A stretch of DNA of 64,000 bases from Candidatus Woesearchaeota archaeon (GCA_018302815.1 JAGVZE010000009.1:56149-120148), one strand, 5' to 3'. Counted from the stretch's first letter, positions 5,258 to 51,375 are shown. Numbers and translations are program-made. Notes: generated by a model not told the origin, from the sequence alone.

Positions 5258-5371
5258 GGGCCTGTAGTCTAACGGATAGGATACAGGGCTTCGGACAGCG
5301 CCCTGCGATGATATGAGCACAAGCGTTGGCTAAGACACCCTGCGGTCTGGGTTCGAATCCCAGCAGGCTCG
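5258..5371 (+). tRNA. tRNA-Arg(TCG) with a 42-nt intron at the canonical 37/38 position
   Basis: The acceptor stem GGGCCTG/CAGGCTC pairs with one G-U. The T-arm is CTGGG-TTCGAAT-CCCAG. The anticodon loop is CTTCGGA (U33, anticodon TCG, purine 37). An approximately 42-nt insertion (5295-5336) lies between position 37 and the 3' anticodon stem CCCTG and can form a hairpin, consistent with a bulge-helix-bulge intron. No encoded CCA. Confidence 0.65.
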
Positions 5372-41252: not shown

Positions 41253-43220
41253 TCAGTATTCTTTGAGATCAAGCACGCGAACTTTCACTCCAACAGGCAC
41301 GCCCGCCCTAGAAAGCTCAGATACAAGAGCGCCCTTGAACGAAGAAACATCAGAGGGAACGTTGAACGCGGCATAAGGCACTCCCATCACTTCAACAGCA
41401 GGAATCTGCGCTCCAAGCAAAAGCTCGACTGCCTCAAGACACTTGTGCTCAAGCGGAGCCACCGATGCGGAAACATCCACAGGAGCTAACATATGCTTAT
41501 CAACCATGTTGACGACCAGCTCAAGAACTGAAGACTCGACAATCTTCACATGCTTGTCCCGATCAGCAATCACCTGGTCGTAATGCGCCTTGTGCTTTAC
41601 CGAAACATCATAATCATCCACAAACTTCTGAGCTTCAGCGCGATTGATGAACGGATTCCCTTCAGGAAGCTCTAAAACATTCTTTGCAGCAGCATACTTC
41701 TTTGACGCATCGGCATCCAATTCCTTGAAGTCAGAAAGCTTTTTGCCACCAAACACATCAGACGCCAATTCTTCGTCAAGTATACGAATGTACGAAAACG
41801 CGTCCTTAGACTCACTTGAAAAACTCGAAGGCACATACACCGGACGGCGGGAAATCTCGTCCTCAAGAGATTGTATAGCGCTCTTGCACTCCTCGTGCGA
41901 AACAACAACAGCAGGACTTTCTGAAGCTCTCTCGCCCCTTAAAAACTCATCCAAATCGTGCTCGAGCTGCTCTTTTGCGGCAAGCGCATCCTCCTTCTCC
42001 TTTTGAGCGTTCTCCAGCTTTGCCGTGTAACTTTCAACCTGTCCTTTGAAGTAAACAACAGCCCTCTCCAAAAGCTGAAGCTTTCTTTCCGAAGGCATCT
42101 TGTCTTCCTCATCTTGCTCGTAGGTATTGGCAAGAACTAGTTCTGCTTTTCGCTGCTCGCGCTCGTTGAATAACTGCAACTGTCTTGCCACAAGAGACTT
42201 AAGCGCATCAATTGTGAATTCAGTTGAGCTTACACGTATGAGCTTTGCACCATTATCAAGAACAGCCCTCACTCCCTTAGCAGACAGATGATCATTAAGA
42301 GTGTTCTTGAAATTGACTCCCTCCGGAGGCATCCTCGTGATAGAATACTCCACAAAATATTGTGTTTTCTTAGCGCGATACGACTCGAGCGCAGCGCGTA
42401 AATCATTGCACTCCTTTTCCATACGCCAACTATACATCTCAGGCATACGAAGCGGTTTGCCGTCAACCTGTGTAGAAGTGAAATGAATCCAGTCTGAATC
42501 CACACTTGCTGAAGAATCATATTTTCCGGTGAAAACCACAAAATTGTTCGGGTCTCGACCAGTCACCAAAGCGCCAATGTGCATCGGACTTTCAGGATTG
42601 AACAAAAGCCGAGCGCAATCCTGAGCAAGCACGCTTTGACATTTGTCAAGAGTGACCAGCGCCACAGGAACGCTTTTCTCATAGAACTGCGTGAACGCGT
42701 ACGCGACAAGCTCAATATCCGCTTTGCTAGGACGCCTGTCCTCTCCTGCGAAAACTTTTCCGTTCACTTTATCGATAAAACTTGTGAACCCAGCAGTCCT
42801 CACATTAGCAGAAGGCACCCTGCGCCTCATATTCTTGTAAACTTCATCGCGCAGAACCTTAAGAGAAGAAATGTTCGCACGGCAAGCGTGGTCAACAGAA
42901 CCGGAAATACCGTCAAGAAACACCAAATCTGAAATCTCGGAAAGCTGCATCGGAGACGAATAAACACTTTCGTCATCAAGAACTGTCCTCTTCACACGCC
43001 TGAAAAGATCGAGCGCGTCCTGGAATGAAAGCGGATCTTTGCAGCCATCCCTCTTTCCGAAAAGTGAAGATAACGTAGGACTAGTCGGAGCGCAGATAAA
43101 GCTCGCATCCACAAATAATGAGCCGTCGATGAACGGACGCAGCGCGCCGGTAGGGTCAGTAACTCCTGCGAACTGCTTATCCATCAACTTAAGCATCGTT
43201 TCGAGCCCGATATCAACCAT
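41253..43220 (-). CDS. large hypothetical protein with a coiled-coil segment
   Basis: 655 aa. The central region (EREQRKAELV...KLENAQKEKEDALAAKEQLEHDLDEF) is a predicted coiled coil. No catalytic motif. Confidence 0.45.
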   Translation of the reverse strand: MVDIGLETMLKLMDKQFAGVTDPTGALRPFIDGSLFVDASFICAPTSPTLSSLFGKRDGCKDPLSFQDALDLFRRVKRTVLDDESVYSSPMQLSEISDLVFLDGISGSVDHACRANISSLKVLRDEVYKNMRRRVPSANVRTAGFTSFIDKVNGKVFAGEDRRPSKADIELVAYAFTQFYEKSVPVALVTLDKCQSVLAQDCARLLFNPESPMHIGALVTGRDPNNFVVFTGKYDSSASVDSDWIHFTSTQVDGKPLRMPEMYSWRMEKECNDLRAALESYRAKKTQYFVEYSITRMPPEGVNFKNTLNDHLSAKGVRAVLDNGAKLIRVSSTEFTIDALKSLVARQLQLFNEREQRKAELVLANTYEQDEEDKMPSERKLQLLERAVVYFKGQVESYTAKLENAQKEKEDALAAKEQLEHDLDEFLRGERASESPAVVVSHEECKSAIQSLEDEISRRPVYVPSSFSSESKDAFSYIRILDEELASDVFGGKKLSDFKELDADASKKYAAAKNVLELPEGNPFINRAEAQKFVDDYDVSVKHKAHYDQVIADRDKHVKIVESSVLELVVNMVDKHMLAPVDVSASVAPLEHKCLEAVELLLGAQIPAVEVMGVPYAAFNVPSDVSSFKGALVSELSRAGVPVGVKVRVLDLKEY

Positions 43221-43387: not shown

Positions 43388-43795
43388 ATGGGCCTATTTA
43401 CAAAAATAAAAGACAAGTTCTCCTCACCAAAATATGAGGAACTAGAAAAAGAATCCGAATACGTCGAACTTGAAAACGACAGCGAAGTGCAACGCTCAAA
43501 AGTTATGGTGCGACCATTCCTGCTTGAAGATTTTGACGACGTGAAGCCAGTACTTGATTCGCTGCGCGAAGGATACACCATCGCGCTCGTGAACATACGA
43601 CCGCTCAAGGAAAAAGACCTTGTGGAATTGAAACGCGCGATCAACAAGATAAAGAAAACAACCGACGCAGTCGAAGGAGAAATCGCAGGATTCGGCGATG
43701 ACTTCCTCGTTGTGACCCCCGCGTTCGCAAGCATCTACCGCAACAAACAGACAAAACAAGTCCAATCAGAAGAATCTGTGCATCTAGCGGATTAA
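43388..43795 (+). CDS. sepF: cell division protein SepF-like
   Basis: 'VMVRPFLLEDFDDVKPVLDSLREGYTIALVNIRPL...DAVEGEIAGFGDDFLVVTPAFASI' follows the SepF/DUF552 pattern. Confidence 0.55.
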   Translation: MGLFTKIKDKFSSPKYEELEKESEYVELENDSEVQRSKVMVRPFLLEDFDDVKPVLDSLREGYTIALVNIRPLKEKDLVELKRAINKIKKTTDAVEGEIAGFGDDFLVVTPAFASIYRNKQTKQVQSEESVHLAD

Positions 43796-43798
43796 TTT

Positions 43799-44032
43799 TT
43801 ATTTTTTATACCATTTTTCAAAATCTTCTCTTGTAATTTTCAATTCTTTCTTGATGATTCTCGTGAGCAAACCCGGACCTATTTCCTCTTTCGCATGAAC
43901 CGGAATCACCACAATCTGACCGTCAGGTCGTTTTAGAATATGATGACTGCCCTCCACACGAGCGAGAGTAAAACCTTGCTTCAGAAGAATTTTAACGAAC
44001 TCGCTCCCCTTCAACCTAGGAAGCTTTGCCAC
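43799..44032 (-). CDS. hicA: HicA-family mRNA interferase toxin
   Basis: 'LKGSEFVKILLKQGFTLARVEGSHHILKRPDGQIVVIPVHAKEEIGPGLLTRIIK' is a canonical HicA/YcfA sequence. Confidence 0.8.
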   Translation of the reverse strand: MAKLPRLKGSEFVKILLKQGFTLARVEGSHHILKRPDGQIVVIPVHAKEEIGPGLLTRIIKKELKITREDFEKWYKK

Positions 44033-44033
44033 C

Positions 44034-44240
44034 TTAAACCTCTATCGCGGCAATCTCCACAAATTTATGCTGAGAACTATCTTCCTCAACCACTGCAAGA
44101 TATCCCGTAATCGCCTCTTTAATACGAACAAGAAGCTCCTTCTTAGTCTTCGCCTGAGTATAGCAACCCGGAAGCTCCACTACCTCCGCCACAAACCATC
44201 CGTCCTCATCCTGCTCAATCACAATATTGAATTTTGCCAT
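44034..44240 (-). CDS. hicB: HicB-family antitoxin
   Basis: 'NIVIEQDEDGWFVAEVVELPGCYTQAKTKKE' is a HicB/UPF0150 N-terminal fold. It lies 1 nt upstream of hicA. Confidence 0.75.
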   Translation of the reverse strand: MAKFNIVIEQDEDGWFVAEVVELPGCYTQAKTKKELLVRIKEAITGYLAVVEEDSSQHKFVEIAAIEV

Positions 44241-44297
44241 GCAGTCCTAAATAGAATTTCGTTTTATAAACTCTTCGGTGAAAAATATGGAACTATT

Positions 44298-45023
44298 CTA
44301 ACGCGCAAGAACCACTAATGCATCACGCCAAGAAGTCCTATCAAGCTTGAATCGAGCATCGATGTACAAAGTTGTGTAAGGTTCATCCACATCCAACCTC
44401 AACACGCGGGTTCGCAGACTACGCGGACACGTAGTCATCAATGAATCCGAAACACCATAGAGATCGCGCACTTTTCGCGCCAACTGCACAGAACAGACGC
44501 GTTCAACAATAGGAACACGAACTTCTTCAAGCGGAGACGAGGCAGCTCTTGAAAGACGAACCCCCTCACTTGCGCAGTCCACTCCTTGAGCAAGAGGAGT
44601 GTAACCGTTCCTTGCTATCAATTCATCGCACACAGAAATAATATCAAAATGCATCAACTCAAACCTTCCAGAATACCTCACCGCAGAACAAGTATCAATA
44701 TAGTCAGACTCACACACCCTGTGAGCAGATTCGCACCGTCCACTCGTAAGTGCCTCGAGCGTCTCAGCCAAACTTAACGGCCGATATCTTCCGTTCACGA
44801 ACGGCTGAGATTCTGAAGCAACCGACTGCAAACCATCAATCATAAAACCATACGAATACTTCTCAAGAGGAAGACGCACAACCTCATACGAAGAAACAAC
44901 CCGCGCGTCAAAAGGAGCACTCTGCCCCGCACGCTTACGCGCAACACGCAGGCGAATGCCATCATCACGAGCGCCGGACTCGCTGAACCTGCGCTCCAAA
45001 TCACGAAGACGAGAATCGCTCAT
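44298..45023 (-). CDS. hypothetical protein, paralog family 1 (N-terminal MSDSRLRDLERRFSES)
   Basis: 241 aa. The N-terminal ~35 aa resemble those of the adjacent 265-aa gene. 4-nt start/stop overlap with it. Confidence 0.45.
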   Translation of the reverse strand: MSDSRLRDLERRFSESGARDDGIRLRVARKRAGQSAPFDARVVSSYEVVRLPLEKYSYGFMIDGLQSVASESQPFVNGRYRPLSLAETLEALTSGRCESAHRVCESDYIDTCSAVRYSGRFELMHFDIISVCDELIARNGYTPLAQGVDCASEGVRLSRAASSPLEEVRVPIVERVCSVQLARKVRDLYGVSDSLMTTCPRSLRTRVLRLDVDEPYTTLYIDARFKLDRTSWRDALVVLAR

Positions 45024-45817
45024 TGGGAATCACCTGCTGGTTTCCTAATTATTGTTCCCGCAGGAAAACGGAAGCGAATATTTCGCACATGCTCAAAAGC
45101 CACATCATTCTGCCGTCCCGGAGAAACAACCGCGCACGCAATAGAACCCTGGACGGCAAGATCAAAATAATCCACCATAAACGGAAAAGATTCTCCAAAA
45201 TGCTGCACGCTCAACTCGTCATAAACATTAAAGAATTCTCTCCGAAGAGCGCGATCCTTAACTTGCATTGAATATACATAGTTATCCGGAAATGAGCCCA
45301 TGAACGCAACCTTCCCACCCAACTCCTCACGCGCATCCCCCCTTAACCTCGCACAAGAGCCAGCAAGAGATAGATGATTATAAACCAGCCCGCACAAAGC
45401 GTCCGACCCCGGCACCAATTCTGCTCTTTGAAAACAATCAGCAGTCAACCAATACGACCTGCTCCGGCCAAAAACAGAAACAACAGAATCACGAGCGGAC
45501 GAATTGTAACCCTCAACAACAGAACGCATCAATTCCTCTAAAGTCAACAACCGTGGAACAAGCTGCGAGCCATTGAAAATGTGCGGATGCACGCACTGCC
45601 CTGCAAGCTCGCTTTCAACACGCGCGATAAGAGCGGAAACATTCGGACCGCAATAATCATCAGAGCCCGTCTCAATCAAATCCAACTCCCAACCAGAACC
45701 AATAACCGGAACATCATTACCAACACGGACACACTCCCGCGCATAACGCTCGAAGTCCGCTTTAGCACGGCTTTCTTTCCACGCTCTTTCAAGCTCACGA
45801 AGACGCTCGTCGCTCAT
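45020..45817 (-). CDS. hypothetical protein, paralog family 1 (N-terminal MSDERLRELERAWKES)
   Basis: 265 aa. Shares the N-terminal leader with the 44298..45023 gene and with the plus-strand array at 48530-50654. Confidence 0.45.
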   Translation of the reverse strand: MSDERLRELERAWKESRAKADFERYARECVRVGNDVPVIGSGWELDLIETGSDDYCGPNVSALIARVESELAGQCVHPHIFNGSQLVPRLLTLEELMRSVVEGYNSSARDSVVSVFGRSRSYWLTADCFQRAELVPGSDALCGLVYNHLSLAGSCARLRGDAREELGGKVAFMGSFPDNYVYSMQVKDRALRREFFNVYDELSVQHFGESFPFMVDYFDLAVQGSIACAVVSPGRQNDVAFEHVRNIRFRFPAGTIIRKPAGDSQ

Positions 45818-46305
45818 CTGGCACCGCTGAAATCGTGAAGCACCACGACAGGCCTATCTCCTGCCTTGAGAAGGACCAGCTCATCATCTACATCGACTCC
45901 GAGCGTCTTTACCTCGCGGCACTTTTTGCCCCATGAATCACAGTACTCGGCAACGACAGGAATGTCTTGAACCTTCAGCTCTCGTTTGATAGCATTGAAA
46001 TGACTTTTCGCTCCACCTGTAACAACCGCCCTCACACTATCCAATGAAGACTTCCTGCCCAATCTTTCAAGAACCTGAGGAATGTATTCCTTTGGATGCA
46101 GATAGGACAAATCATAATGTGAAAGCGCGACAGCATCAGGCGCTATCAAAACCAGACCGTTGCAATCCAAATAACCAGAAGAATACAACGAACCTGACCT
46201 CACCGCCAGATGGTCAAGATACACCACACGATCACGCCTGAAATCGCCAAGCTCAGAAAGACGCGCATCCAAATCAGTCGTTACACTTTGCATCTCACTC
46301 ACCAC
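45814..46305 (-). CDS. hypothetical protein (operon member)
   Basis: 163 aa. 4-nt overlaps on both sides. Confidence 0.45.
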   Translation of the reverse strand: MVSEMQSVTTDLDARLSELGDFRRDRVVYLDHLAVRSGSLYSSGYLDCNGLVLIAPDAVALSHYDLSYLHPKEYIPQVLERLGRKSSLDSVRAVVTGGAKSHFNAIKRELKVQDIPVVAEYCDSWGKKCREVKTLGVDVDDELVLLKAGDRPVVVLHDFSGAR

Positions 46306-47213
46306 CCAAACATCCGCCCTAACCAGCTCTTCTTTTTTCCGGGTCCACCCCAGATAGTCGCAGCTTGCGCATCAGACATGACCTCGAATCGCGGCGCGTC
46401 ACGTACCCCGCGAGAGGCCCCGTCGCCGTAGACGCCGTACCTGCTGCCGAAGCCGCTGACGCTGAACCTGTAGTCGCCGCGGGCAACAGGCCACGCAACA
46501 CCATCTGACGGCAAGTATACGTGAACCTTTTTGTTGCCTTCACGCATTTCTGTTGGAAGCTGATCAAAACGTCGTCCACAGAGGAACTGGACGAAATAAG
46601 GTCTGAACTTGTCAAGTCCAACCCATTGACCAGATGTGATTCCATTAATATCAAAAGAACATTCTCCTGAATAACCGAAATTCTGTTTATCGTACTTAAT
46701 TCCAGTCCAAACCAGACCAACAGGATCAAGATAGCAAACGAGCAGTTCTCCTTTTCTTTCAAAAGCAAGACTCAACCACTCGCCATGGCCAGTACTCATA
46801 TCAGCGCTGACCTTCGACAACTCCCCGTTGAGTTTTCCTTCAAGACCATCAATAATCAAGCCAAACGCCTCCTGAGGCCTTGCGTGCCGCTCGAATCCCG
46901 CTGCGCGCAGACGTTCAAGACTTTCATCGAACGTCAGAATGTCTTTAGTTTGTTCATTTTGCGCTCGATACGCGCGCGACTCGAAATCGACCCGCTCGTA
47001 TGAACCAACACTCACCACACTCTCAATGCCATCATCCTTCAAATTCTTCAACGGTTTCTGCGCAGCACCTGTTAACCCCTCAAGATACTCGCTCTTACAC
47101 AACGCATGATAAGGAACACTCTTTATCAAACCAACGAGGTCATCATCAGTGATTTTCGTCCTGCAAAAACCGCACAAATCAAACCGCGTACCGCCGAATT
47201 GGATGTCAGACAT
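46299..47213 (-). CDS. hypothetical protein (operon member, starts MSDIQFGG)
   Basis: The start is taken at the internal Met (MSDIQ), 2 nt after the stop of the upstream gene. The listed ORF (46299..47282) would overlap that gene by 77 nt. About 304 aa, rich in Gly, Trp and Tyr in the C-terminal part. Confidence 0.45.
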   Translation of the reverse strand: MSDIQFGGTRFDLCGFCRTKITDDDLVGLIKSVPYHALCKSEYLEGLTGAAQKPLKNLKDDGIESVVSVGSYERVDFESRAYRAQNEQTKDILTFDESLERLRAAGFERHARPQEAFGLIIDGLEGKLNGELSKVSADMSTGHGEWLSLAFERKGELLVCYLDPVGLVWTGIKYDKQNFGYSGECSFDINGITSGQWVGLDKFRPYFVQFLCGRRFDQLPTEMREGNKKVHVYLPSDGVAWPVARGDYRFSVSGFGSRYGVYGDGASRGVRDAPRFEVMSDAQAATIWGGPGKKKSWLGRMFGW

Positions 47214-47748
47214 TTCTCTCACCCAACGCGTCATTTCGCTCTTTTGCCCACGCGCGATATTTGTTCGCCTCGTCAAAAGCACCTGAGAACTCCTGCTTGG
47301 ACTTTTCTAGCTGCGCATTCAAATCACGGCTTATGAAATACGCAAAAACGCACTGAACGTATGCGGCAGGAGGAATCGCCAAGCAAAGAAACTTATTCAC
47401 CATACGCTGCGAAAGTTCGGGTTTTGATGCATCCGCTCCTTTGGCTGCAGACTCAATCCCCCTGCATTCATCAAGCGCAGAATCAAGATACCCTTTTGCA
47501 ATATCATCCACTGCAGAACATTTCTCCACAGTTATCTCTTCAGAAAGCTTCCCTGCCCGCTCGCATAGTGAATCAAGCTCGCCACGGCACCCAGCCATCG
47601 AATTGCCAAGTAAAGCATCACTTACCAAAGAAACCACAAGACCACTCGCATGAAAACGCAAATCACCAAAATAATCCCACAACGCAAAAGTCAACGCACC
47701 GGCGAATACATTGCCCAACAGAACGTAATTCGACTGAAAATCGCTCAT
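47206..47748 (-). CDS. hypothetical protein (operon member, starts MSDFQ; hydrophobic N-terminal segment)
   Basis: 180 aa. 'YVLLGNVFAGALTFALW' may be a TM or amphipathic segment. 4-nt overlap with the nfi stop. Confidence 0.45.
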   Translation of the reverse strand: MSDFQSNYVLLGNVFAGALTFALWDYFGDLRFHASGLVVSLVSDALLGNSMAGCRGELDSLCERAGKLSEEITVEKCSAVDDIAKGYLDSALDECRGIESAAKGADASKPELSQRMVNKFLCLAIPPAAYVQCVFAYFISRDLNAQLEKSKQEFSGAFDEANKYRAWAKERNDALGERNV

Positions 47749-48416
47749 AGCTCCTCAACAATCTCTTCCTTTAGCTGCGGGTTTCTTCGCTCTTCTGCGG
47801 CTTTTTTCGCGAATCTGTGCGCTACGTGCAAAGGCTCAGGAAGCTTGTGCGGAGGAATCACCATCTTAAGAATTATTTTAGCTGCAACGTCCATTGGAAT
47901 TATGTTGCCGGTCGAGACGTAAAGCGCATTCGCGTGCTCTTTTGTCTTCACCGCTTTTCCAACCTTCTCGCCGTTCATAATTATGAAGCCGTCTTTCTCT
48001 TCGCATTCAATTAGGCTTTTGGCGATGCCGATAGTAGGCTTTGCGAGTTCGACGCCCACAAATGTCGCAGGACCGCAATTCATCGGATGAGCGATGCCGT
48101 GGCCATTGATGATGATGACATCAGGATCGTATTCCAGATCGTAATAAAGTTGGCAGATTATCGGACCTTCTCGAAATGCTGCGAAACCAGGAACATAATT
48201 CATCGGAGCTTTTGCAACGAGAAACTTGCGCTCCTTTACTTCCAAAGTTTTGTAATCAAGAACTGCGGCAGCGCATATGCACTCCTTGCCAAAGAAAATA
48301 GTCTCAAAGCCCGCGATGTATTTGATACCCTCTTCCTTGAACTCATCATCCACAACTACTTTGGATGCGACTTCAATCTGCGAATGCTTTAGATTGCCAA
48401 AATCAGGTTTTATCAT
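47745..48416 (-). CDS. nfi: endonuclease V (deoxyinosine 3' endonuclease)
   Basis: 'YVPGFAAFREGP', 'INGHGIAHP' and 'PTIGIAKS' match the endonuclease V catalytic motifs (DGxG.xHPR and PxIGVAK). Confidence 0.8.
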   Translation of the reverse strand: MIKPDFGNLKHSQIEVASKVVVDDEFKEEGIKYIAGFETIFFGKECICAAAVLDYKTLEVKERKFLVAKAPMNYVPGFAAFREGPIICQLYYDLEYDPDVIIINGHGIAHPMNCGPATFVGVELAKPTIGIAKSLIECEEKDGFIIMNGEKVGKAVKTKEHANALYVSTGNIIPMDVAAKIILKMVIPPHKLPEPLHVAHRFAKKAAEERRNPQLKEEIVEEL

Positions 48417-48529
48417 TGAGCCACCCTTTCTTTACGAAGGAATCTCAAAAAGCAGTATATAAAGCTTTCTATTTGTATTTACTGCCAAGTGGCGAAATGT
48501 TTAAATGCGGATGCGGAACTCTTCAAGAC
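48417..48529. promoter_or_regulatory. divergent promoter region between the nfi operon and the paralog array
   Basis: A 113-bp AT-rich spacer with 'tatataaag' (48459-48467) and 'tttaaatg' lies about 25-30 nt upstream of each divergent start. Confidence 0.35.
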
Positions 48530-49208
48530 ATGAGCGACGAACGATTCAGAGAGCATCAACGAGCGGTTGATTCAGGAGATATGAACGCGCTGCCAAGCCT
48601 CATAACAGAAGCAGTACGCACCAGCACGCCAATCTACAAATACGCAGGAAGAATACTCTACAATCTAAACGACAACGTTGTAAGACGCACCGCGAGTAAC
48701 GAGGGCAGACAAAGCTATCGCCTCACTCGAAGTTATCCTCATCAACAATCTCATCACACACGTTCCTAGAAGCGATCGTTACCACCTTGTTAAAGCAAGC
48801 TGCTTTTGGAGCGAAGTATTCAACAGCACATTCATCATACGAGGACTCCCCCTTCGACAAATAACAAACGGAGAACTACTTGGAACAGCCGACATAACTC
48901 CTTACTTTAGCAGAGCGAACGAAGATGCGCAAAAGCATCCGCAAGATAGAACAATACTTGTCTACAACAATAAAACAAACGCCACTCCCTGCCACTTTTT
49001 TGGACTCGAGCGCGATGCGGTCATAATTGATGAACTTCACAAAGATGGAAGAATCCACCCACTAATGATGACTGTTGGAAGAAGAACTCAACCTTTCTCA
49101 CTGACTGCATCACCCCGCCAAAATTACACGGCCATCGCCCTAACCACCAAACACGCCGAACACATACTCGGAAATCCGAACGTATTCGACTTTGAGGGAA
49201 TATTATGA
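48530..49208 (+). pseudogene. paralog family 2, copy A (frameshifted)
   Basis: The N-domain 'MSDERFREHQRAVDSGDMNALPSLITEAVRTSTPIYKYAGRILYNLNDNVVR' is in frame 1, which stops at 48769. The homologous body and the conserved C-terminus '...TKHAEHILGNPNVFDFEGIL' continue in the +1 frame to 49208. Confidence 0.5.
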
Positions 49209-49866
49209 GCGACGAGAAATTCAGAGAGTATCAACGAGCAGTTGATTCAGGAGACATTGAAGCGCTGCCAAGCCTCATAACAGAAGCAGTACGCACCAGC
49301 ACGCCAATCTACAAATACGCAGGAAGAATACTCTACAATCTAAACGACAACGTTGTAAGATCACAGACAAAGTCATTCCATCGCTTGAACTCAACCTAAT
49401 CAACAACGCAGTCGTACGCCCTCCGGGATACGAATACGTCCATGCAGTCAAAGCGAGTTGTTTTTGGAGCAGCGTATTCGACTGCCGTTTTCTAATCAGA
49501 GAAACACCTCTTCGCCAAATGGCAAATGGCGCTCGGATCGGCACATTCGATATCAGCCCATACGGCAACCGAGCGAGCGCTGATGCAAATAAACCTGCGC
49601 AGGAAAGAGCAGTTCTCGTGCACGGCAAAAAGACCCCAGACACACCCGGACTGTTCTTTGGCCTTGAACATAATGCACTAACAATCTCAGATGTTCGAAA
49701 AGACGGCACAGTCCATCCACTCACAATACATTTGGGAGAATCACGCCAGCACTACACCCTATATTCATCCAACAATCGAAATCAGACCGCAATCCCCCTC
49801 ACAACCAAACACGCCGAACACATACTCGGAAATCCGAATGTCTTTGATTTCGAGGCGATAAAATGA
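49205..49866 (+). pseudogene. paralog family 2, copy B (frameshifted)
   Basis: The N-domain is 98% identical to copy A. Its frame stops at 49399. The body, homologous to copies A and D, continues in the -1 frame (listed ORF 49519..49866) and ends '...TKHAEHILGNPNVFDFEAIK'. ATGA overlaps lie at both junctions. Confidence 0.5.
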
Positions 49867-50654
49867 GCGATGCGGAGTTCAGAAAATACGAACGCGCGGT
49901 GAACGAAGGAGATATCGATGCCATACCTCAATTAATCACTGCGGCGCTAAGAACAAACACGCCGATTCACAAGTATTTACCAACGATAAATGACAATCTA
50001 AACCAAAACGTAATCAGAACGCTCGAAGGAAGCGAACTTATGGATTTGAGAATGTATCGCGTGCATTCCATCCCTGAAGCCGCAGCGATACTCGAACGCT
50101 CAGGAAGAGTGTTGCCGTCGCTTGAAATTATCGCGCTCAATCACGAGATAACCGGATTTGCCGGAAAAGAAAACTCAGACATCCTCATGAAAGAGAGCAT
50201 CGTAAGATTCGACGTTCCATATTTTGTGAGAGCCTCGCACATTTTCAGATTGGCACACGAACAGGGAATACGGGGCACTCATGAAGAACTAATTGAGCGC
50301 ATGTCAACATATCAAGCTTTAACAGCCGCTCAAATAGAGAGAACACGATGCACAAGGTCCATCTCACAAATTCTCCAAACCGCAACCAGGCACGAACTAT
50401 CACAGCTATACGAACTATCACAATTATTCTTGATCGACCAATCGATGCGCGTCACCCTTGAAATAATTTATCCTTATCGCCAAGAAGCGCACACCAACCC
50501 ACACGAGCAACACATATTCGTTCGAAAAATTGCAGAACATATCGAATGCCAGTCCAACCCGTTCATCTTCAACGAGGCCCTCATGATCCCGACCGTCAGC
50601 CCAAAAGCTGAACACATTCTTGGCAATCCGAACGTGTTTGAGTTCCCTGAATAA
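49863..50654 (+). CDS. paralog family 2, copy C (intact, 263 aa)
   Basis: A single frame holds the N-domain 'MSDAEFRKYERAVNEGDIDAIPQLITAALRTNTPIHKY', a body homologous to copies A and B ('RVLPSLEIIALNHEIT' versus 'DKAIASLEVILINNLIT'), and the C-terminus 'KAEHILGNPNVFEFPE'. Confidence 0.5.
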   Translation: MSDAEFRKYERAVNEGDIDAIPQLITAALRTNTPIHKYLPTINDNLNQNVIRTLEGSELMDLRMYRVHSIPEAAAILERSGRVLPSLEIIALNHEITGFAGKENSDILMKESIVRFDVPYFVRASHIFRLAHEQGIRGTHEELIERMSTYQALTAAQIERTRCTRSISQILQTATRHELSQLYELSQLFLIDQSMRVTLEIIYPYRQEAHTNPHEQHIFVRKIAEHIECQSNPFIFNEALMIPTVSPKAEHILGNPNVFEFPE

Positions 50655-50719: not shown

Positions 50720-51127
50720 TTGGTCATGCGATATTATCTGGACACTTCAATTTGGCTCGACTATTATGAAAAAAGAGGAAAGAATGGAGAAGAGGCCGTA
50801 AAACTCATACTTAAAATAATGGAAAGACAGAGGGTTGTTTGTTTTTCTGATTATCACACCATAGAGTTAAAGCGTCTAAATTACAATCTTGAGCAAATAG
50901 CTGAAATGCTCAAAATTGTAAAACCTCACCTGCTCAGAAGAATACACCTGCAAAGACACCACTTTAGGACCTCACGACAACTTGCGTCTCAACGCTCAAT
51001 TCCTCCAGGAGACGCCCTGCATGCCTTGCTTGCTAAAGAAAATGACGCCACACTAATATCAAGAGACGCTGATTTTGAAAAACTCAAAGACCTCTGTGAA
51101 ACAAAGAAACCAGAGAATATTCACTGA
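50720..51127 (+). CDS. PIN-domain protein (VapC-like)
   Basis: 'YYLDTSIWLDYY' is the N-terminal PIN motif. '...DALHALLAKENDATLISRDADF' is the C-terminal PIN segment. Confidence 0.7.
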   Translation: MVMRYYLDTSIWLDYYEKRGKNGEEAVKLILKIMERQRVVCFSDYHTIELKRLNYNLEQIAEMLKIVKPHLLRRIHLQRHHFRTSRQLASQRSIPPGDALHALLAKENDATLISRDADFEKLKDLCETKKPENIH

Positions 51128-51375
51128 AATTGTTTTTCAAGCTCCTCAAACGCTTCCTCGCGCGCCTTATGCAGCTCCTCATCGGTCGTCTTCCTGTTCG
51201 ACGCGCCGTACATCTTGTACACTCTTTGGCGCGCCTCTTCAAGCTCGAGCTGTTTTAACTTATCGCGCATCGCCTCGCGGATGAATTCAGTCTTTGTAGT
51301 ATAGTGATGCTTCTTGATTGCCTTCTCAACGCTATGCGCGAACTCCTGCTCTAATTTCAAACTAACAGTTTCCAT
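51121..51375 (-). CDS. ribbon-helix-helix (CopG-like) protein, convergent with the PIN gene
   Basis: 'METVSLKLEQEFAHSVEKAIKKHHYTTKTEFIREAMRDKL' follows the RHH pattern. Its 3' end overlaps the PIN gene's 3' end by 7 nt on the opposite strand. Confidence 0.55.
   Translation of the reverse strand: METVSLKLEQEFAHSVEKAIKKHHYTTKTEFIREAMRDKLKQLELEEARQRVYKMYGASNRKTTDEELHKAREEAFEELEKQFQ

Follow-up and report, generated by a model that had tools for sequence, protein, structure and literature searches.

Positions 44298-48416 of a 64,000-nucleotide stretch of DNA from a Candidatus Woesearchaeota archaeon (GCA_018302815.1, JAGVZE010000009.1:56149-120148; this whole stretch is the window referred to throughout) carry six open reading frames (ORFs) on the minus strand, all in the same direction: the endonuclease V homologue nfi and, behind it, five genes here called g2 to g6. 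The same string recurs unchanged in six or more independent assemblies, and the ORFs, their coordinates and the Pfam match all agree with a preliminary description of the region as a six-gene string headed by endonuclease V. That description went on to propose a conserved cassette. The comparisons reported here favour, on balance, a composite of a backbone gene and a lineage-specific accessory island.

The genes are packed tightly. A 4-nt ATGA overlap joins nfi (47745-48416, 223 aa) to g2 (47206-47748, 180 aa), which overlaps g3 by 8 nt (ATGTCTGA). Counted from its MSD start, g3 occupies 46299-47213 and encodes 304 aa; gene callers place the start at 47234, giving 311 aa. The next gene, g4 (45814-46293), has 159 aa from an ATG or 163 from a GTG, and follows after a 5-nt spacer that becomes a 7-nt overlap if the GTG is used. 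Both remaining junctions, between g4 and g5 (45020-45817, 265 aa) and between g5 and g6 (44298-45023, 241 aa), are again ATGA. Shine-Dalgarno motifs resembling GGTGA precede the starts, and such tight junctions throughout make translational coupling, as originally suggested, probable. Four of the products (g2, g3, g5 and g6), rather than the three first counted, begin with MSD, and the MS start is partly forced because an ATGA overlap requires a second codon that begins with A. Read from the sequence, an archaeal TATA-box-like TTTATATA box (48456-48463, minus strand), which lies upstream of nfi at about 44 nt from its ATG, is likely to be the promoter of the six-gene unit. Past the g6 stop, a T5 run (44281-44285, minus strand) bears a likeness to archaeal oligo-T terminators and is followed by a fresh TTTATAAA box (44263-44270, minus strand) ahead of hicB, which together suggest that the unit ends at g6. 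A sigma-70 promoter and terminator scan was set aside as not applicable to an archaeon.

The five proteins encoded behind nfi are as unfamiliar as they first appeared: searches of Pfam, NCBIfam, PADLOC and PHROGs returned nothing significant for g2-g6, and no ordinary metabolic family emerged either. Component models of PADLOC-DB 2.0 gave chance-level matches only (SduA, E=0.009 for g3; PglX, E=0.04 for g5), and g2-g6 yielded no domain of a nuclease or nucleic-acid-binding kind. Hypothetical proteins J4219_04325 and J4219_04320, from a metagenome-assembled genome of Candidatus Woesearchaeota, have the same sequences as g3 and g4.

The identity of the first gene is clear. Its product matches Endonuclease_5 (PF04493) at E=1.5e-46 and 159 bits (gathering cut-off 23.4), over profile positions 2-198 of 198. 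The metal-binding catalytic site of endonuclease V (EndoV) consists of D43, E89, D110 and H214 (PMC3025561). At these Thermotoga maritima positions the window protein, aligned to 2w35 and 6ozf, has E38, E83, N104 and H200. Of its three acidic metal ligands, two have therefore been replaced (D43 to E38 and D110 to N104), and the best match in the PDB is 6ozf, itself an engineered D110N mutant. In addition, the pocket Leu of PGFLAFREGP is replaced by Ala. Five out of five Woesearchaeal EndoV relatives keep both Asp of the D/E/D/H set, and they keep the canonical pocket residues too. As a member of PF04493, the window protein thus has a full-length domain, wedge and pocket motifs that are largely present, and equivalents of K139 and H214; it differs from the family in the two acidic ligands, the pocket Leu and the ATGA overlap that joins its gene to a non-repair island. 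Not one difference in nfi separates the four independent assemblies for which mismatches were listed (L001, L003, L005 and L006), so the active-site substitutions are not assembly error. Judged by these residues, nfi would be either decaying in this lineage or turned into a cleavage-impaired binder.

The neighbourhood of nfi in relatives shows how the string arose. Neighbours were compared at five metagenomic loci, each encoding an EndoV with 50-60% identity to that of the window, and at none of the five does any of g2-g6 come behind nfi. In L027, nfi is directly followed by sepF (on the opposite strand), L21e and rpoF, which is the backbone order of the window without g2-g6, hicBA and a 655-aa coiled-coil gene. 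Upstream, ZPR1 immediately adjoins nfi in L029 and L031, while in the window three genes named p1-p3, a PIN-domain gene and others intervene. The compact order of the relatives on both flanks indicates that accessory genes colonised both sides of nfi, and that nfi is a backbone gene and not the founder of a cassette. The far edge of the insertion is marked by the backbone gene sepF (43388-43795, plus strand; Pfam SepF on the called gene). Between it and g6 lies a hicB/hicA toxin-antitoxin pair (43799-44240, minus strand; Pfam families of the genes called in L001), which by synteny is part of the inserted material, being absent from both L025 and L027.

L025 is a closer relative, with a SepF 89% identical to that of the window, and here the order is nfi, a g2 homologue (40% identity, 180 aa), a 264-aa leader gene, a g6 homologue (49% identity) and sepF. 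The contig holds the 22 C-terminal residues of its EndoV, which are 68% identical and lie away from the substituted sites. The 264-aa gene is the positional counterpart of g5, with a leader as in the window and an unrecognisable body (z=1.8), and g3, g4 and hicBA are not present between nfi and sepF. This comparison indicates that the island is confined to a narrow lineage, changes far more quickly than the genes around it, and both gains and loses members. Co-conservation with nfi, by which the preliminary description proposed to check its cassette, thus extends to L025, which alone keeps nfi, g2, the leader gene and g6, and stops there: the five other relatives have nfi without g2-g6, and about 14 loci with g3-family genes have no nfi. 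The idea of a conserved, EndoV-led cassette is not supported.

Composition sets the island apart in one respect. The GC content at third codon positions (GC3) of its genes is like that of other window genes; at second positions (GC2), g5 and g6 reach 0.44-0.48, compared with 0.28-0.37 in most of the other genes examined in the window, and both proteins are rich in Arg and almost free of Lys (R 9-13%, K 1%). A foreign origin by composition was rejected, GC3 being host-like and the raised GC2 reflecting Arg/Ala/Ser-rich, Lys-poor proteins. A viral origin was likewise rejected, with no IMG/VR relatives of g2, g3, g6 or p3.

The last two genes had been taken for paralogs with a common N-terminal leader, and only the leader survives scrutiny. 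Similarity between g5 and g6 is limited to residues 1-37 (nt 45707-45817 in g5 and 44913-45023 in g6), which are 46% identical (BLASTP E=6e-5) and score z=11.7 against shuffles. The remaining bodies of about 200 residues score z=-0.1, which leaves nothing of the proposed internal duplication beyond the 37-aa leader. The consensus, M-S-D-x-R-[LV]-R-x-L-E-R...S-G...R.A.K..G, may form a helical hairpin; its copies are hydrophilic, and none is a signal peptide. Apart from MSD, g2 and g3 have nothing in common with the leader, and g4 is without it. A leader hidden Markov model (HMM) run on the six-frame translation of the window found g5, g6 and, weakly, p2 (E=0.007), and nothing else. Conservation of the leader extends over four or more contigs that come from different samples. 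The same type, M-[ST]-D-x-R-L-R-x-L-E-R...G-D, stands on two tandem lectin-fold proteins in L032 and on the g6 family in L025/L026, and p1-p3 have a weaker version. The bodies are another matter. Among 5.8 billion protein clusters g5 retrieves itself only, so its C-terminal part is an orphan, and an exhaustive HMMER search of 1.84e9 representatives returned only four relatives of g6; the L025 orthologue has 229 aa against 241, and L026 has two tandem paralogs. As candidates for diverged lectin-fold or 'famB' proteins, g5, g6, p3, g2 and g4 were all rejected (hhalign probabilities of at most 3%).

The p1-p3 genes (48497-50654, plus strand) form an array of three tandem paralogs divergent from nfi, with 257, 250 and 263 aa in other assemblies (L001 5011-7321). 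They have a related leader, MSDExFRxxxRAVxxGD, that scores z=4.4-5.2 against that of g5/g6, and a conserved C-terminus, AEHILGNPNVF(D/E)F. The window copies of p1 and p2 have lost their reading frames through two deletions, one of 91 bp and one of about 22-43 bp. Four other assemblies lack these deletions, which represent either a collapse of the assembly at the leader repeats (161 bp, 94% identical) or a true difference between strains.

Of the island genes, g3 offers the most direct view of a possible function. Its N-terminal 70 or so residues are unique, with a CxxC...HxxC pattern and a low-confidence model. Residues ~70-272 are a C-type-lectin-fold domain that belongs to a DPANN family of variable (target) proteins of diversity-generating retroelements (DGRs), and g3 has the architecture of such proteins, namely a C-type-lectin fold with the variable region (VR) at its C-terminal end. 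Foldseek found no significant match in the PDB. At L007, an Asn-codon-rich 82-bp repeat beside an RVT_1 reverse transcriptase (RT) corresponds to the 3' ends of two genes of the g3 family, and the mismatches between this template repeat (TR) and the VRs fall at template adenines in 8/8 and 7/7 cases; at L011 the figure is 9/9 substitutions. Adenine-only mismatches beside an RT at both loci identify the g3 family as a DGR target family. Alignment to DGR-targeted homologues, including the TR/VR pairs of L007, places the VR-equivalent segment of the window gene at 46401-46499 (minus strand; aa 239-271, AWPVARG...ASRGV).

The window g3 is an orphan copy, static and not currently diversifying. Its VR-equivalent segment has no differences among the four assemblies with mismatches listed, which as consensus assemblies can mask variation within a population. 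The 64-kb window has no TR-like repeat of the g3 3' end; the L007 RT found nothing among all window ORFs (phmmer, E<=10), and HMMs of the MoxR and HExxH proteins that accompany the family at L007-L009 found nothing among them at the same cut-off. A strain that is 99.6% identical over 4672 bp (L024) has 17 differences from the window, all clustered: six within 42 bp of g3 (46488-46529, including the nonsense change S236*), at the 5' edge of the VR-equivalent segment, ten within 122 bp of g5 (45225-45346) and one in g6, with no differences in the other ~3.8 kb. The g5 cluster, at aa 169-198, comprises 7 nonsynonymous and 2 synonymous changes. This clustering could reflect local hypervariability, gene conversion or an artefact of assembling mixed strains. 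Active diversification of g3 was rejected, since the VR-equivalent segment is invariant among the compared assemblies and the clustered single-nucleotide changes of L024 are not adenine-specific.

In relatives the g3 family keeps different company. About 14 g3-family loci from at least seven genomes were annotated with HMMs built for this analysis, and they contain no homologues of nfi, g2, g4, g5, g6 or p3. A cassette that recurs in Woesearchaeal and Nanoarchaeial genomes opens with a 48-aa AbrB-like protein, a MoxR-type AAA_5 ATPase (PF07728; PF20030 bpMoxR is also recorded on the L007 protein) and a g3-family lectin-fold gene. It continues with a variable number of genes of about 250-300 aa, a 550-590-aa protein with the HExxH motif HECGH and no Pfam match, and another lectin-fold gene, with TR and RT in two cases (L007 and L011). 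Representative cassettes lie at L007 3902-10163, L011 5965-12099, L009 1034-9672, L018 7535-19500 and L019 8467-17865; MoxR and HExxH genes occur together in L007, L008/L013, L009, L011, L018 and L019, and MoxR alone on the short contig L033. Within one cassette the genes have a genome-specific N-terminal leader in common and differ in their bodies. Up to ten genes of a cassette are so marked: eight in L009 have the leader MTPKNPFADPEHPIDYNIRGKDV, and ten in L018/L019 carry ...MPxxFAGFSxxDA.... The leader DNA is 88-96% identical between genes. The g5/g6 pair of the window is a local instance of this wider leader-plus-bodies design. At least eight g3-family copies lie on six contigs of a single assembly, CAZGZA01 (L013-L016, L020-L022), whose label 'Methanosarcinales' looks wrong because its gene content matches Woesearchaeal loci; L008 (P0024) is the same contig as one of these.

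The remaining island genes are less informative. Two moderately hydrophobic segments of g2, at residues ~9-27 and ~120-140 (Kyte-Doolittle 19-residue maxima 1.4 and 1.76), suggest that it may be a small membrane protein. Its one orthologue is that of L025, in the same place behind nfi, and no further relatives were found in the metagenome scan. It is the island gene most stably attached to nfi and, besides g6, the sole one kept in L025. Like g5, g4 gives self-hits only in the 5.8 billion protein clusters. A possible motif resemblance of g4 to CheD-like Cys/His deamidases found no support, and the single-sequence model of g4 is unreliable.

Other features of the surroundings deserve brief mention. 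A 655-aa coiled-coil orphan (41253-43220, minus strand) separates sepF from L21e, two genes that adjoin each other in L027; it has weak SMC-like and LmuB-like matches only (E 0.003-0.007), and neither it nor p3 gave anything significant in the Pfam, NCBIfam, PADLOC and PHROGs scans. Toxin-antitoxin modules are dense near nfi: besides hicBA there are a PIN gene with an 84-aa upstream gene (50720-51375) and a VapB-like/ParE pair (L001 2465-2931), and none of these is part of the relatives' backbone. At 5258-5371 (plus strand) a 114-nt tRNA was found by Rfam and not by ARAGORN, and it probably contains an intron.

How are these observations best brought together? The reading that I hold to be somewhat better than an even bet is that the locus is composite, a backbone nfi followed by a lineage-specific, fast-evolving accessory island (g2-g6 and hicBA) that would serve as a leader-tagged, variable recognition apparatus. 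Confidence is high for the composite island and low for the mechanism attached to it. In a single Woesearchaeal lineage the island came to be inserted between nfi and sepF and, having landed immediately behind nfi, is probably read through from the nfi promoter. Its plan is a short common N-terminal leader on unrelated C-terminal bodies, and g3, which has no leader in the window though its L032 homologues do, is a C-type-lectin-fold binder of ligands. In the proposed mechanism, by analogy with effector-associated domains (EADs; PMC7159879), the leader would most likely serve for coupling or targeting, so that exchangeable bodies, whether binders or effectors, are brought to one partner. This partner could be the small hydrophobic g2 in the window, where it is the sole candidate, and the MoxR/HExxH pair in relatives. 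As the leader was not found on core proteins of the relatives' cassettes, such coupling would be heterotypic and not homotypic. Together they would give the cell a variable apparatus for recognition in its interactions with other cells, hosts or viruses, as is generally proposed for DPANN DGR targets. The g3 family is hypermutated by DGRs elsewhere and occurs in MoxR-ATPase cassettes like those of known conflict systems, which makes a role in recognition or conflict plausible. To that extent the interpretation first suggested is partly supported.

The original proposal, that Endo V works in a single nucleic-acid-targeting or defence complex with the five proteins encoded behind it, now seems improbable. 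In such a complex EndoV would be the head that recognises or cleaves inosine lesions or, in an updated form, a cleavage-impaired, binding-only sensor. The ATGA overlap between nfi and g2, the tight coupling throughout, and the order nfi, g2, leader gene, g6 kept in L025 despite 40-49% identity all speak for it. L025 is however a close relative, so common ancestry explains the kept order. The presence of E38 and N104 where five island-less relatives have Asp would fit a change of function, but relaxed selection explains it equally well. Furthermore, nfi occurs without g2-g6 in those five relatives, g3 homologues are never beside nfi in their ~14 loci and associate with MoxR and DGRs, and g2-g6 bear no nuclease, helicase, methylase or defence-family signature. 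It is still less probable that the island is the cargo of an integrated mobile element or provirus. An insertion relative to backbone synteny, with hicBA on one flank and VapB/ParE and PIN modules on the other, is what such cargo might look like, and DGR targets and MoxR-vWA pairs are known in archaeal viruses (literature cited in PMC7159879). Against this, no integrase, capsid or terminase was seen, PHROGs gave no matches, g2, g3, g6 and p3 have no IMG/VR relatives, and GC3 is host-like.

A more serious contender, if an unlikely one, is evolutionary debris: the degenerating remnant of a DGR/MoxR-type cassette together with orphan ORFs, lacking coordinated function, in a variable region rich in toxin-antitoxin modules and under relaxed selection. 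Several observations count for it. Both g4 and g5 are orphans; g3 is invariant and without TR or RT; in strain L024, g3 is interrupted by a nonsense codon, and 7 nonsynonymous and 2 synonymous changes cluster in g5; the window assembly has frameshifts in p1 and p2; nfi has lost two catalytic Asp; and three toxin-antitoxin modules flank the region. Yet all five ORFs are intact, with their start/stop overlaps and Shine-Dalgarno motifs, in at least six assemblies, and a conserved leader occurs on four or more contigs of differing sample origin. The orthologues of g2 and g6, moreover, are full length (180 vs 180 aa; 241 vs 229 aa) at only 40-49% identity, which requires purifying selection on coding capacity. 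A bolder version of the composite island is rather unlikely as it stands. It would have an undescribed modular system of Woesearchaeota and related DPANN archaea in which a short genome-specific leader addresses interchangeable, sometimes DGR-hypermutated binders to an AbrB-like/MoxR/HExxH machine. The window island would be a satellite cargo array that captured a catalytically altered, binding-only EndoV as its first gene, thereby linking the recognition of deaminated nucleic acid to the apparatus.

The genomes of DPANN archaea are tiny and these organisms rely on other cells; even so, they maintain large families of uncharacterised, rapidly changing proteins. The locus shows a lectin-fold scaffold, diversified by DGRs in relatives, that is organised together with unrelated proteins in leader-sharing arrays, often beside a MoxR ATPase, and it shows that an array of this kind can become attached to a housekeeping gene for repair, here one with a drifted active site. 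Should the leader prove to be a genuine signal for coupling or targeting, it would offer a handle for finding a variable surface or recognition repertoire from sequence alone. The locus also counsels caution: a tight operon with ATGA overlaps does not prove that the first gene is a member of the system.

Among known systems, polymorphic effector and toxin arrays combine a constant N-terminal trafficking module with variable C-termini. The leader-sharing arrays resemble them in the constant N-terminus, swapped bodies, tandem arrangement and rapid divergence, as well as in repeated leader DNA that could drive recombination, and differ from them in that neither a secretion apparatus nor any toxin domain or immunity gene came to light. 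The fold of g3 is that of the DGR variable proteins AvpA (Nanoarchaeota, 5IOO) and TaqVP (5VF4; PMC5006420), and Handa et al. (2016, PMC5006420) had already noted that Woesearchaeota have AvpA-like lectin-fold proteins, of which some have 'no DGR'. The g3 family has no detectable sequence similarity to AvpA (profile against PDB), and the window g3 differs from both proteins in its unique Cys/His N-terminal extension and 35-aa C-terminal tail, and in having neither TR nor RT within 64 kb nor population variation. The lectin-fold DGR-target family of DPANN archaea is thus known in kind, and the g3 family is a sequence-distinct member of it.

The closest parallels are the MoxR-vWA 'ternary' conflict systems, which have FGS/C-type-lectin effectors, and their EADs (Kaur et al., 2020, PMC7159879), which as published are bacterial, enriched in multicellular bacteria and not in DPANN archaea. 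With the former, the relatives' g3 family has in common its place beside a MoxR AAA_5 ATPase, sometimes together with a DGR. The relatives' HExxH partner (~560-590 aa) is without a Pfam match, and the window itself lacks MoxR, vWA and a VMAP/iSTAND core, as it lacks the AbrB-MoxR-CLec-HExxH cassette of its relatives, in which MoxR and HExxH genes accompany a lectin-fold gene. No Pfam EAD family matched at E<=1, and no core component (VMAP, iSTAND, GAP1 or Ubl) with a copy of the leader is present in the window. The likeness to EADs is one of principle: in the relatives' cassettes, and on g5 and g6, a small, non-enzymatic terminal module is found on neighbouring genes with differing bodies, and in the relatives the copies in adjacent genes are the most alike, in keeping with the way EADs couple components (PMC7159879). 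Leader-sharing arrays beside MoxR/HExxH genes in Woesearchaeota are not mentioned in the literature consulted, and they resemble, with these differences, the principle by which bacterial EADs are organised.

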